Source of the DNA: an uncultured Clostridia bacterium
GTDB taxonomy: Bacteria; Bacillota; Clostridia; Christensenellales; UBA1242
Assembly: GCA_944376495.1 (NCBI GenBank)
Contig: CALWCW010000068.1
Coordinates: 14,456 to 78,455, forward strand
Direction of reading: 5' to 3'
Length of the DNA stretch: 64,000 nucleotides
The notes under the pieces are model-generated. The model had not been told where the DNA came from. It ran no database searches and worked only from the letters and a program-made list of their open reading frames with translations. The translations under genes were made by a program, and so were the position numbers. Of this stretch, positions 34,777 to 44,080 are shown piece after piece (the stretch's first letter is position 1; each line of letters starts with the position of its first letter).

Positions 34777-35532
34777 ATGAAAGTAAATGATAAGTTAGAA
34801 CAAACAAATGTGCACAGTTATCATTATGTTATGCTTGGATTTGCTGATTTTAAAAAGATTTTTAAAAAACTAGAAGGTCTATTGAAATTTTATCGAATAG
34901 AAAATAAAGGTAAGGAGTTTGCTAAAGAAATTATTTATGATGTTCCAAGCAATCTTTTATCAGATGCTGGTATTGTTCTTTCAAAACAATATGAAGCAAA
35001 ACGAATTTATCTTAAGGTTCGTAAAATAAGCAAACTACCAGGAGAAATGAAAAGACCTAGTAAGAAATTTATTCTTGGAGAACTTGAGTCTGATATTGAA
35101 CCTAGAAATTACTCTTTACAAATATCTTCCGCTATTGAAAATTCTTTTTCAACAACTTTTACGGTCGATTTAGATTCTATTGTAAAACAAACTGTTCCTA
35201 AAATTGAGATTAATATTAAATCAAATAAATATCATATTATTGGAGGGACAGGATTTAGAGCTGATTTTTTCTATGAAGTGGCAACTTATAAAGACATTAA
35301 AACAGGTAAAAAGGTTGATAGAGAAGGTGTGACTTTACAACTTTCAACTGACGAAGAATACACCCAAGAAAATAAACAGATTTTAGATTTGATTGATAGA
35401 CAAATTAAAGAACTTGCTCTTTATAATCTTTCAAGATTTGAAATTGCTCAAATGCTTCTTTATCCTAAAGAAATAGAAGAAGATGAAAATCGTTTTGAAA
35501 ATGAAGATGATGATAAAGAGGGGAATGAATAA
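34777..35532 (+). CDS. Hypothetical protein (acidic C-terminus)
   Basis: 251-aa ORF with an AAAGGTGG RBS. A weak impression of a CYTH-like beta-barrel protein, not supportable. Confidence 0.55.
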   Translation: MKVNDKLEQTNVHSYHYVMLGFADFKKIFKKLEGLLKFYRIENKGKEFAKEIIYDVPSNLLSDAGIVLSKQYEAKRIYLKVRKISKLPGEMKRPSKKFILGELESDIEPRNYSLQISSAIENSFSTTFTVDLDSIVKQTVPKIEINIKSNKYHIIGGTGFRADFFYEVATYKDIKTGKKVDREGVTLQLSTDEEYTQENKQILDLIDRQIKELALYNLSRFEIAQMLLYPKEIEEDENRFENEDDDKEGNE

Positions 35533-35651
35533 GTTTTAATAGATTGTCGAGGTTAGTGTTTAAATTTTATTGATTGGTTAAAGTTGTTTTTAAATTACAT
35601 ATTCGAGAGATTATGTTTGAAAATAGAAGAATGTTGGTGACGGGAAAGGGT

Positions 35652-35740
35652 GCTAAAGAAAGCATCTTTTTTCAGGTTAACTGAAAAAAGATAAAAACTT
35701 TCGTTTTTACTAGCACCACTGGTGCTAGGCTTTCTTTAGC
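35652..35740 (+). other. Perfect four-helix-junction (cloverleaf-shaped) element upstream of the GPH transporter
   Basis: P1 35652-35663/35729-35740 (12 bp). P2 35664-35675/35681-35692 (12 bp). P3 35693-35698/35703-35708 (6 bp). P4 35710-35717/35721-35728 (8 bp). There are no mismatches and one unpaired junction nucleotide (A35709). The pairing is read directly from the sequence; the function is unknown. Confidence 0.5.
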
Positions 35741-35798
35741 CGTTATTCAAAAGACATATTTTAATCAAAAATATCAATTAGTAACATAAAAAAAGGGC

Positions 35799-37238
35799 TT
35801 GTCACATAAATATAATTTAGTGAAATCAAAACTTAATTTTAGAACTAAATTTTGTTATGGAATAGGTGGGCTTGGTTATAGTTCAATGTCACAGACTTTG
35901 AACAGTTTTATAATGTTTTTTGCAACCGCAGTTATGGGAATTTCTGGATCTTTAGTAGGAATTGCGATAGCAATATCTTCGTTATGGGACGGAGTTAGTG
36001 ACCCACTTATAGGTTATTTGTCAGATAATACAAAAAATAAGTTTTTTGGTAAAAGACTGGGTTTTATGTTCTTTGGAATATTTGTCATAGCCTTTTTAAA
36101 TATTTGCATATGGTCAATGCCGGCTTCAATGCCAGAAATAGGAAAGTTTTTATGGCTTTTAGTAGGTATGCTTGCAATAGAATCAGCGAATACCTGTTTT
36201 GGAACTCCATATGCAGCACTTGCAATTGACATAGCACCTGATTATAACGAACAATCAAAGGTTCAAAGTTATAAAACTGCTTTTAATATTATTGGAATGA
36301 TTTTACCAAATATATTAATGTATTTTTTCATGTCGTCAATATCTTTAAGCATTCAAACAGGTTATACGCAAATGGGCTATATAAAAATTGCTTGTATTAA
36401 TTCAAGTTTGCTTATAATATTAGGACTTATAACAATTTTCTCAACTTTACATTGGACACGCAAAAATCACATTTATTCAATGGATGTTAAGAAAGAAAAA
36501 TTTAGTTTTGGACAACTTTTGTCGGGATATTTTGATGTTCTTAAAAAGAAGGATTTTAGAATTGTAATTCTTGGTTATTCATTTGCTACAATTGCATCAG
36601 CATTTTTGACTTCAGTAGGTATGCACTTATTTACTTATTGTTATCATTTTTCAAGCACACAAATATCAATAGTTTTAATTTCTCTTTTTGGTGGGGCAAT
36701 TGCTTCTCAGCCTCTTTGGGTATATGTATCAAAACGAATTGAAAAAAAGAGAGCATTGATAATATCATTATCAACAATAGTGTTTGGTATATTTTTGACA
36801 GTTATAACATTTTTATTTAGAGATTATTTATCAAATCAAGTGATGTTTTATTTAGCAATTCCTTGTTTAGTTTTTTGCGGAATTGGTGCTGGTGCCATGT
36901 ATTCACTGCCGTTTTCAATGTATGCTGATGCTGTCACATTAGAGATGTTTAAAACTGGACAAAATAATGCGGGTGCATATACAGGCTACTTTACTTTTAG
37001 TTATAATTTGGCAAATTCGGTTGCTCTATTAATTATAGGATTTTTGCTTGATTTTATAAAATTTGATTCAACTCAACCAGTTCAAGCAATGTCAGTTCAA
37101 AATGGACTTGGCTGTATTGTATTTTTTGGTTGCACAATCTTTTTATCTTTAGCAATTATGGTTTTTTCAAAGTTTTCTATCAAACGGTCAGATGTATTAA
37201 AAGTTCAATTGTTAAATACAAAAAAGAAAGAAAAATGA
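35799..37238 (+). CDS. Glycoside-pentoside-hexuronide (GPH)/MFS-type cation symporter
   Basis: 479 aa, about 12 TM. The N-terminus FCYGIGGLGYSSMSQTLNSFIMFFATAVMGISGSLVGIAIAISSLWDGVSDPLIGYLSDNTKNKFFGKR matches the MelB/GPH signature (D-P..G...D). The start codon is uncertain: TTG 35799 or GTG 35820, and neither has a good RBS. Confidence 0.75.
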   Translation: MSHKYNLVKSKLNFRTKFCYGIGGLGYSSMSQTLNSFIMFFATAVMGISGSLVGIAIAISSLWDGVSDPLIGYLSDNTKNKFFGKRLGFMFFGIFVIAFLNICIWSMPASMPEIGKFLWLLVGMLAIESANTCFGTPYAALAIDIAPDYNEQSKVQSYKTAFNIIGMILPNILMYFFMSSISLSIQTGYTQMGYIKIACINSSLLIILGLITIFSTLHWTRKNHIYSMDVKKEKFSFGQLLSGYFDVLKKKDFRIVILGYSFATIASAFLTSVGMHLFTYCYHFSSTQISIVLISLFGGAIASQPLWVYVSKRIEKKRALIISLSTIVFGIFLTVITFLFRDYLSNQVMFYLAIPCLVFCGIGAGAMYSLPFSMYADAVTLEMFKTGQNNAGAYTGYFTFSYNLANSVALLIIGFLLDFIKFDSTQPVQAMSVQNGLGCIVFFGCTIFLSLAIMVFSKFSIKRSDVLKVQLLNTKKKEK

Positions 37239-42164: not shown

Positions 42165-42548
42165 ATGAAAAGAGCAGAAAAATTAATCGAGATTGAATCA
42201 TTATTAGAAAATTTAATGAAAAGTCGCAGAGATGGAAGTATATTGAGAATGAAAATTTTATTTTTTTGTTCAATTTATGAAAATCTTTCTGTGAGTATGA
42301 TAATAGAGAAGTTGGGTATTAAAAAGACAAATTTTGCACTAATGACAAAAGACCTTGAGAAAGACGGTTGTTTGATTATTAAAAAATCAAGCATGGATAA
42401 ACGATGTCATCTTGTTGAACTTACACAAAAGGGGAAAGAAGAACTTGATAGATATTTAAAAGAGTTTGATAAGGCTTTAGGGCCTACTTCTCCTGATGTC
42501 GATTATGCAGTTGAAGTCTTGAGTAAATTTTTGAATAAACTTGTTTAA
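42165..42548 (+). CDS. Small MarR-like winged-helix regulator
   Basis: 127 aa. ..LSVSMIIEKLGIKKTNFALMTKDLEKDGCLIIKKSSMDKRCHLVELTQKGKEELD fits the MarR wHTH layout. Confidence 0.5.
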   Translation: MKRAEKLIEIESLLENLMKSRRDGSILRMKILFFCSIYENLSVSMIIEKLGIKKTNFALMTKDLEKDGCLIIKKSSMDKRCHLVELTQKGKEELDRYLKEFDKALGPTSPDVDYAVEVLSKFLNKLV

Positions 42549-42709
42549 TCTTTTAATGTTTAGATTTGCAATTTATAAATAATTTAGTTGAAAGATAAAA
42601 AATAAAACTAATAAAAGTAAAAATTATAATTATAAAAGATTAATATTATAAAAGATTAATTATTTTATATATAATTTTCATATATAAATAATAAATATAG
42701 GAGTTTATT

Positions 42710-44080
42710 ATGCTTAAATTTTATAATTCTCTTTCAAGAGAGAAAGAGAAATTTGTTCCACATGATAGGGAAATCGTTAAAATGTATTCTTGCGGGCCAA
42801 CAGTTTATATGCGACCACATATTGGCAATATGCGAGCATATCTTTTTATGGATAACATACGAAGGGTTTTGAAATATAATGGCTATAAGATAGAAGGAGT
42901 TATGAATATCACAGATGTTGGACATCTTACAAGTGATGCTGATGAGGGTGAAGATAAAATGCTTCTTGCAAGCCAAAGAGAGAAAAAAACACCTTGGGAT
43001 ATTGCCAAATATTATACTGATTGTTTTATGAAAGACGTCAAAAAACTCAATGTCGATCTTCCCGAACATATTTGTCCTGCTACATCAGTTATAGAAGAAA
43101 TTATTAGTTTTGTCAAAGAACTTTTAGATAAAGGATTTGCATATGAAACAAGCAAAGGAATTTATTTTGATATTACTAAATTTGCTGATTATGGAAAACT
43201 TGGCATGGACGTTAATAGTAAAAAAGCAGGCGCAAGAATTGCCGTTGATGACGAAAAGAAACATCCAGCAGATTTTGCCCTTTGGATTAAAGCACCGAAA
43301 GAGCATATCATGCAATGGTCAAGTCCTTGGGGAATGGGTTATCCGGGTTGGCACATTGAATGTTCAGCAATAGGAAAAAAATATTTAGGTGATTACATTG
43401 ATATTCATACGGGTGGAATAGATCACAAAACAATTCATCATGAAAATGAAATCGCTCAAAGTGATTGTCTTGAAGGTCATAAGGTTGTTCATTTTTGGAT
43501 GCACCTTGAGTTTTTGCAGATTGACGGCGGCAAAATGAGTAAAAGCCAAAACAATATATTGACAATAGAAGATTTAGAAAATAATGGTTTTAGTGCAGAG
43601 GACTTTCGATTTTTCTATTTCAATGCTCATTATTCAAAACAACAAAACTTTACTTATGATTCTCTTCTTGCATCTAAAAATGCTCTTAAAAACTTTAAAT
43701 TGGCAGTTGGCGAACATAAAAAGTCGAGCGAAAAACTTTCACAAGAAAAAATTAATGAATATGAAAAAGAATTTTTAGAATCTATTAATGATGACCTTAA
43801 CATGCCAAAAGCACTTGCAGTATGTCAAAAACTTTTAAAAGAGAAGAAGAGTCAAGATGTATATAACCTTATTTTAAAATTCAATCAAATTTTAGGGTTA
43901 AATTTTTGTGAAGAGGAAAAAGATTTGCCACAAGAAATAAGGGATTTAGCGGAGAAACGTTGGCAATCTAAATTAGATAGGGACTATCAAACCGCTGACC
44001 AGTTAAGACAAGAACTTTTAGAAAAAGGTTATGTAATCAAAGATAGCAAAGATGGCTACAAAATTCAACTAAAAGATTAA
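42710..44080 (+). CDS. cysS: Cysteine--tRNA ligase
   Basis: 456 aa. HIGNMRAY (HIGH motif), KMSKSQNN (KMSKS motif), and the GWHIECSA zinc site. Confidence 0.95.
   Translation: MLKFYNSLSREKEKFVPHDREIVKMYSCGPTVYMRPHIGNMRAYLFMDNIRRVLKYNGYKIEGVMNITDVGHLTSDADEGEDKMLLASQREKKTPWDIAKYYTDCFMKDVKKLNVDLPEHICPATSVIEEIISFVKELLDKGFAYETSKGIYFDITKFADYGKLGMDVNSKKAGARIAVDDEKKHPADFALWIKAPKEHIMQWSSPWGMGYPGWHIECSAIGKKYLGDYIDIHTGGIDHKTIHHENEIAQSDCLEGHKVVHFWMHLEFLQIDGGKMSKSQNNILTIEDLENNGFSAEDFRFFYFNAHYSKQQNFTYDSLLASKNALKNFKLAVGEHKKSSEKLSQEKINEYEKEFLESINDDLNMPKALAVCQKLLKEKKSQDVYNLILKFNQILGLNFCEEEKDLPQEIRDLAEKRWQSKLDRDYQTADQLRQELLEKGYVIKDSKDGYKIQLKD

Follow-up and report, generated by a model that had tools for sequence, protein, structure and literature searches.

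A perfect cloverleaf between two genes of an uncultured Clostridia bacterium is probably one copy of a clade-restricted family of nested-palindrome repeats

What is a mismatch-free four-way junction doing between a conserved gene for a 251-aa protein and a gene for a putative cation symporter? The structure lies in a 64,000-nt stretch of an uncultured Clostridia bacterium of the UBA1242 lineage (assembly GCA_944376495.1, contig CALWCW010000068.1, positions 14,456 to 78,455, forward strand). We refer to this whole stretch as the window, and coordinates are those of the window unless another contig is named. An initial annotation, made from the sequence alone, had mainly regarded the structure as a riboswitch-like leader or leader-peptide attenuator of the symporter gene. 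The parts of the locus, all on the + strand, are as follows.

34777-35532: upstream gene for a 251-aa protein without a match in Pfam or NCBIfam; conserved across the genus, in synteny with the transporter gene
35613-35684: 23-codon ORF MFENRRMLVTGKGAKESIFFQVN, with its stop in the P2 3' arm; judged a chance ORF
35652-35740: focal cloverleaf copy, with the AT-rich hairpin first and the GC-rich hairpin last; best match of the covariance models R1 and R2 (see below)
35652-35663: P1 5' arm GCTAAAGAAAGC, a terminal inverted repeat with 35729-35740
35664-35692: P2, 12-bp AT-rich hairpin ATCTTTTTTCAG-GTTAA-CTGAAAAAAGAT, arms 35664-35675 and 35681-35692
35693-35708: P3, hairpin AAAAAC-TTTC-GTTTTT, arms 35693-35698 and 35703-35708
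35709: unpaired junction base, A
35710-35728: P4, 8-bp GC-rich hairpin CTAGCACC-ACT-GGTGCTAG, arms 35710-35717 and 35721-35728, followed by the T-rich P1 3' arm
35729-35740: P1 3' arm GCTTTCTTTAGC, pairing with 35652-35663
35796-35816: conserved box GGCTTGTCACATAAATATAAT, from an alignment of 30 orthologous upstream regions
35820-37238: GPH/MFS_2 cation symporter gene (PF13347, E = 9e-55), likely start GTG 35820

The element is 89 nt long and consists of four mismatch-free helices of 12, 12, 6 and 8 bp, which amount to 38 Watson-Crick pairs around one unpaired junction base. For the + strand, RNAfold returned exactly this four-way junction (-52.5 kcal/mol over 161 nt; z = -6.54), and none of 200 dinucleotide shuffles gave as good a fold. 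The - strand yielded the mirror fold (z = -7.15). The minimum free energy and centroid structures agreed, indicating a single dominant fold without alternative pairing. The perfect four-helix fold described in the initial annotation was thus confirmed by reading of the sequence and by RNAfold, on both strands. The same 89 nt were present in 11 other independent metagenome assemblies of the species, identified by an identical upstream protein or near-identical transporters, and only two single-base variants were observed within the element. The focal element is therefore not an assembly artefact.

We compared the locus with its orthologues. The upstream gene and the transporter gene are syntenic in most of the genus, and transporter orthologues align from residue 1 or 2 of the protein that starts at GTG 35820. 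Against TIGR00792 (gph) the transporter scored E = 7e-31, below the curated cut-off of that model. The 58-nt gap reported between the element and the transporter ORF is correct for a TTG start; the distance to the likelier GTG is 79 nt. The intergenic spacer is 287 nt in this species. It ranges from 65 to 804 nt in the 27 other species of the genus in which it was measurable, and it is shorter than here in 25 of these. Most of the 27 spacers carry a plain hairpin followed by a T run, a terminator placed right after the upstream gene, and none of them contains a cloverleaf. These relatives have the same transporter without the element, an outcome that tells against the role in transporter control first proposed.

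Two other species carry different repeats in the same spacer instead of a cloverleaf. In one (G076, locus L021) there are six tandem copies of about 48 nt, TTTAGAAACGAGAGGAATAACACGAATGAAATGAGTGTTTTC, and in the other (G009, locus L026) there are several short repeats of the AAGATAAATTTT type.

Downstream of the element, the conserved box at 35796-35816 includes a -10-like hexamer, CATAAA (35805-35810), that lies 9 nt (10 positions) before the start codon; there is no Shine-Dalgarno sequence. The arrangement recurs in most species of the genus, where CATAAA, CATAAT or CATAT is found 10-13 nt before the transporter start with no Shine-Dalgarno sequence between them (loci L018-L046). Judged from these alignments, the box is likely the transporter's own promoter, producing a leaderless or nearly leaderless mRNA.

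The element at first seemed to be unique. A BLAST search with the focal element found only the element itself in its own genome, with no near-identical copies, and no other copy in 154 genomes of the genus; the sole match outside was a 45-nt piece in one genome of the genus (G061). Structure-based searches overturned this reading. We built a covariance model, R1, from the focal element alone. Its full-length matches, alike in architecture but not in stem sequence, came from four other species and from one further site in this genome. The suggestion in the initial annotation that copies be sought by sequence and by structure therefore had two outcomes: by BLAST the element finds only itself, and by covariance model it has relatives in other species and at a second genomic site.

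We then scanned the 1.2-Mb genome for perfect outer inverted repeats of 8 bp or more, spaced 40-100 nt apart, and kept those that RNAfold folded into three or more branches with 78% or more of the bases paired. The scan recovered 25 elements, the focal copy among them (listed as G000:C68:50107-50195), compared to 0, 0, 2 and 0 in four locally dinucleotide-shuffled versions of the genome. Three further copies came from a stricter descriptor and from R1, so that this genome has at least 28 elements of 76-100 nt. Every one of them lies between genes, although crude ORF calls make about 84% of the genome coding.

These copies follow an ordered plan: an outer helix, a long AT-rich hairpin, a short AAAAGC-loop-GCTTTT hairpin and a GC-rich hairpin. 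The same ordered plan was seen in 27 copies from other species. The outer helix usually has 11-14 bp and its sequence is often related to GGGCTA(nn)GAAAGC, and the short hairpin corresponding to P3 is the most conserved module across the family. The focal copy conforms in every respect. It has the length (76-100 nt), the outer helix (at least 8 bp), the three adjacent hairpins and the 0-2 junction bases of the family; its modules occur in the expected order, with ATCTTTTTTCAG, AAAAAC and CTAGCACC opening the three hairpins inside the outer arm GCTAAAGAAAGC; it is intergenic; and its outer arm belongs to the GGGCTA(nn)GAAAGC subfamily.

To follow the family further we used a second covariance model, R2, built from about 30 copies, for which the focal copy was the top match. 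Of 150 other genomes in the genus, at least 16 proved to carry the family by R2, an undercount given that scoring covered only 28 candidates in each. Every R2 match that could be placed fell in the clade closest to this species. R2 gave nothing at E <= 1e-5 in 146 genomes from 94 other genera of the order. A family-specific pattern had no match in viral contigs and found eight true cloverleaves in low-GC metagenome contigs. A scan of genome contigs with the exact outer-arm consensus performed poorly, giving only two unrelated matches, because that pattern is too strict for such a variable family.

Three individual copies or fragments deserve description. The closest paralogue (contig C88 of this genome, 2385-2480, compared with window 35630-35755) has an outer arm alike at 11 of 12 bases and about 10-15 nt of similar flank on each side (GGGAAA...AGG upstream, GTTATTCAA downstream), while all three inner hairpins are unrelated to those of the focal copy. 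This paralogue hints that inner hairpins turn over or are swapped faster than the ends. In another genome (G165, contig C11, 1470-1625; locus L075) the outer helix extends to about 29-31 perfect bp near an ORF for a Cys/Gly-rich peptide of 70 aa. The 45-nt BLAST match (locus L055; contig C29 of G061, 570-614) is 85% identical to the focal P2 3' arm, P3 and P4 and has no outer helix. Some 40 nt downstream of it is a gene for an XRE-type HTH protein of 59 aa, divergent from nth; the species is a distant one within the genus. The fragment may have arisen by truncation of a copy or by exchange of a module. As the P4 palindrome is also found upstream of this small XRE gene, we considered P4 as the operator of a regulator. 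The idea was dropped since it involved two genomes only, the focal copy has no XRE gene as a neighbor, and P4 changes freely from copy to copy in the family.

What is conserved in these elements is pairing. The 27 copies from other species contain 1003 Watson-Crick pairs and 9 G·U pairs (about 1%). The pair statistics of our alignment of copies, A3, gave 98.4% paired with both strands included, a figure that is inflated and not independent proof because the copies had been picked for perfect folds. Nor did the elements prefer an orientation. Relative to co-directional genes, element polarity was the same in 13 cases and opposite in 5 in this genome, and 6 and 11 respectively in other species, for a total of 19 and 16; an early count of 10 co-oriented against 2 anti-oriented copies was not upheld in the larger set. 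From the few G·U pairs, the equal folding of both strands and the lack of orientation bias we infer that the constraint acts on the DNA palindromes, or equally on both strands, and not on one RNA strand.

At the focal site itself the pattern of change is a purifying one. In the sister lineage, whose upstream protein is 91% identical, none of the 76 stem bases has changed compared to 6 of the 13 loop and junction bases. The changes fall in the P2, P3 and P4 loops and at the junction base, and the 3' flank differs by about 10%. (The two lineages co-occur in one metagenome sample, ERZ28613746, the source of both L065 and L069.) The only stem changes seen at this site were two rare single-strain variants, T35708C, which breaks an A-T pair of P3, and G35724A, which breaks a C-G pair of P4; the breaks are on the + strand, and on the - strand both variants would form G·U pairs. 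When copies at orthologous sites of other species are compared, the differences are compensated double changes, and one such pair has an inverted loop (GA versus TC); segment-wise comparison of diverged orthologues is partly unreliable because of shifts in sequence-based alignment. What keeps the arms perfect could be selection against unpaired arms, or else the correction of quasi-palindromes by template switching, a known process of replication.

Are the elements still moving? At the focal site only this species and the sister lineage have an element. Two further sites, window 42535-42720 and contig C63 of this genome (9285-9369), are empty here, and two to four other species carry copies there. 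Both lie between orthologous genes and are useful as presence/absence pairs for gain and loss. Since some sites are filled elsewhere and empty here, while the focal site is filled only here and in the sister lineage, gain or loss appears to be ongoing but slow. We did not see flanking direct repeats, the sign of a target-site duplication, around the elements. In this genome, which is 84% complete, there was no insertion sequence with matching ends and there were no matching long-range inverted repeats, and each outer arm sequence occurs only within its own element. Among the element-bearing genomes, the Y1 transposase domain (PF01797) was absent from G000, G103, G106 and G112 and represented by one fragment in G009, and a TnpB gene was not found.

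We asked what the focal copy does where it stands. In a consensus scan for terminators, P4 followed by GCTTTCTTTAG was flagged as terminator-like on the + strand, and P2 likewise on the - strand, again followed by GCTTTCTTTAG. P4 (8 bp, 5 of them GC) passed the scan with GCTTTCTTTA, in which the U tract is interrupted. The remark in the initial annotation that a T tail is missing was right insofar as the tail GCTTTCTTTAG after P4 is weak and interrupted, and has to be amended insofar as it is flagged as terminator-like. No other terminator-like site was present in the 287-nt spacer. Similarly, none of 22 element-bearing intergenic regions facing a gene 3' end had a separate terminator-like site, where about 4.9 were expected (P ~0.004) from element-free regions of similar size (such sites occur in 19% of co-directional and 37% of convergent regions). 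The position of the terminator in relatives, the lack of another site in the spacer, the behavior of P4 in the scan and the result for the 22 regions together suggest that the focal element serves as the 3'-end structure of the upstream transcript.

Termination cannot be the general role of the family, however. Only 9 of 24 copies have a motif that passes a simple terminator rule, two copies lie between divergent genes, and several lie in gene leaders just downstream of -10-like boxes; it is the copies in leaders and between divergent genes that preclude such a role.

We think it probable, taking the local role together with the rest, that the focal 89 nt are one copy of a clade-restricted family of nested-palindrome repeats. 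According to this explanation, the element would have taken the place of the hairpin-plus-T terminator of the upstream gene in the ancestor of this species and the sister lineage. P4 and the T-rich P1 3' arm would act as a weak intrinsic terminator of the upstream transcript, and the whole cloverleaf might block 3' exonucleases. Transcription of the transporter gene would start at its own conserved promoter box, past the element, and the element would be neither a sensor nor an attenuator for that gene.

This leaves the regulatory reading to be weighed, and with it the short ORF. The ORF at 35613-35684 does exist and stops within the P2 3' arm, as first noted. GAGAGA ends 2 nt before its ATG, which is too close for a Shine-Dalgarno sequence. 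In the sister lineage the corresponding ORF has a different ATG, a different N-terminus and a stop 15 nt further on, and that frame is open through P1 and P2 only because the stems are identical. Comparable ATG ORFs occur on 10 of 56 element-strands in this genome; none has a Shine-Dalgarno sequence and the peptides are all unrelated. On these sequence features we judged the ORF to be a chance feature.

The position of the element upstream of the GPH transporter gene and the ORF running into P2 are points in favor of a riboswitch-like leader or leader-peptide attenuator. Attenuation, however, would need a translated and conserved ORF and a choice of folds, and here there is no usable Shine-Dalgarno sequence, the start and stop are not conserved, one fold dominates without alternative pairing, and the orthologous site is empty in other species of the genus with the same gene pair. 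A leader specific to the transporter is likewise contradicted by the at least 28 copies in unrelated intergenic contexts, and the promoter-like box of the transporter lies downstream of the element. Riboswitches have a conserved unpaired core, whereas the loops and the junction are the least conserved positions of this element. Rfam 15 covariance models found nothing at gathering score, with chance-level matches only at E <= 10, in agreement with the initial statement that no known riboswitch class applies. We therefore regard control of the transporter by the element as scarcely credible. The alternatives offered alongside it, a 3'-UTR element of the upstream gene or a cruciform palindrome at the DNA level, fit the evidence much better. 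It could also be speculated that the element acts in trans, either as a small RNA that is discrete and stable or as a processed 3'-UTR RNA. The fold is very stable and compact, and in a few cases (C39:162 and C66:35663, for instance) a copy starts directly behind a -10-like box; however, this is very unlikely, as there are almost no unpaired bases to provide a seed region, the 28 copies are diverged and in both orientations, and Rfam has no match.

Another possibility is that the cloverleaves are strand-symmetric RNA devices selected by the host, working as factor-independent bidirectional terminators or insulators, or as stabilisers of mRNA ends, whichever strand is transcribed. The focal copy would then be a bona fide terminator of the upstream gene that also blocks antisense transcription. 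The same stable fold arises from either strand, with the last hairpin followed by GCTTTCTTTAG in both directions; element-bearing regions have no separate terminators; relatives have a plain terminator at the focal position; and G·U pairs are scarce, as would suit an element that has to pair on both strands. Nevertheless, no T-rich tail results from the outer arms found in other subfamilies (ATGTGATG, GCGACTTGCA), some copies are in divergent regions or gene leaders, and most of the genus does without the family, and we consider this possibility rather doubtful. It is also conceivable that the element works as DNA: a cruciform or four-way junction would be extruded, and a protein specific for junctions (HU, a recombinase or a resolvase) would bind or cut it, in the service of nucleoid organisation, recombination or its own propagation. 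Watson-Crick-only pairs, tight junctions and independence of orientation are consistent with this, as is the divergence of loops, faster than that of the flanks (6 of 13 versus about 10%) and expected if loops are exposed as single strands; the inverted loop (GA versus TC) points the same way. Yet no associated recombinase or transposase gene was found, and selection against gene disruption would account equally well for the strictly intergenic location, which makes this reading improbable. A broader speculation is that cloverleaves are strand-symmetric genome punctuation, either bidirectional insulators or docking sites for junction proteins, with palindrome-corrected arms and fast-evolving loops; we hold this to be an unlikely account.

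The cloverleaf family is undescribed, and it is closest in kind to the pneumococcal BOX, RUP and SPRITE repeats, to MITEs and to REP elements. It is unlike all of these in that the fold is conserved rather than the sequence. BOX, RUP and SPRITE are dispersed non-coding intergenic repeats of about 100 nt in one species group, have extensive predicted secondary structure, are co-transcribed with their neighbors and rarely make new insertions; they were judged to be parasitic rather than dedicated regulators (Croucher et al. 2011, PMC3049150). The likeness, that of short, structured, intergenic and clade-restricted repeats, was assessed by comparing properties only. The pneumococcal repeats can be recognised by sequence, BOX being modular (A-B-C) and RUP resembling the end of an insertion sequence, whereas the copies of the cloverleaf are too diverged for BLAST and share instead a closed four-way junction with perfect arms. 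The hosts of the cloverleaf, too, are of another kind: low-GC gut bacteria, uncultured, whose genomes measure about 1 Mb.

MITEs such as the Correia elements of Neisseria are similarly short, intergenic and found in either orientation, and can provide neighboring genes with terminators or promoters. P1, a perfect 12-bp inverted repeat, corresponds to the terminal inverted repeats of a MITE. In contrast to MITEs, the cloverleaves have no target-site duplication, near-identical copies or parent insertion sequence, and their outer arms vary yet stay complementary, where a transposase would need a conserved end sequence. REP and BIME elements, with their RAYT transposases, are intergenic palindromes that can stabilise upstream mRNA or end transcription and are thought to form DNA hairpins during mobilisation. 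The cloverleaf resembles them as an intergenic palindrome. REPs, however, are single and imperfect palindromes, 20-40 bp long, whose GTAG or CGTC heads are conserved (PMC3733652), compared to four helices and about 90 nt here, and four of the five element-bearing genomes have no Y1 transposase gene.

The focal copy also bears comparison with bidirectional terminators, having P4 with a T-rich tract, a matching A-rich tract upstream, and the ancestral terminator site. It departs from an intrinsic terminator in the two extra hairpins between the A tract and the terminator hairpin and in its weak, interrupted T tract, and other cloverleaf subfamilies have no T tract.

Three further identities were considered. 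ARAGORN reported no tRNA in 35400-35950 and the Rfam tRNA model had no match there. The tRNA-mimic families of a 2026 preprint were rejected because they have conserved tertiary cores and are motifs held in Rfam, where the element has no match. An integron attC site was rejected by inspection, as the helices are perfect, with no extrahelical bases and no R''/R' core consensus (RYYYAAC/GTTRRRY).

These results remove a false lead, that a novel riboswitch or leader peptide controls the transporter. They have a practical side as well: screens based on structure will mis-call cloverleaves as candidate riboswitches or small RNAs, and repeat finders based on BLAST will not see them. Small-genome uncultured gut bacteria carry a dispersed repeat that is conserved in shape, a closed four-way junction, and not in sequence. 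The combination of massive compensated change across copies and species, almost no G·U, unbiased orientation and the lack of a recognisable transposase is uncommon for bacterial repeats, and it raises the question of whether perfect nested palindromes are upheld by selection on both strands or by template-switch correction.
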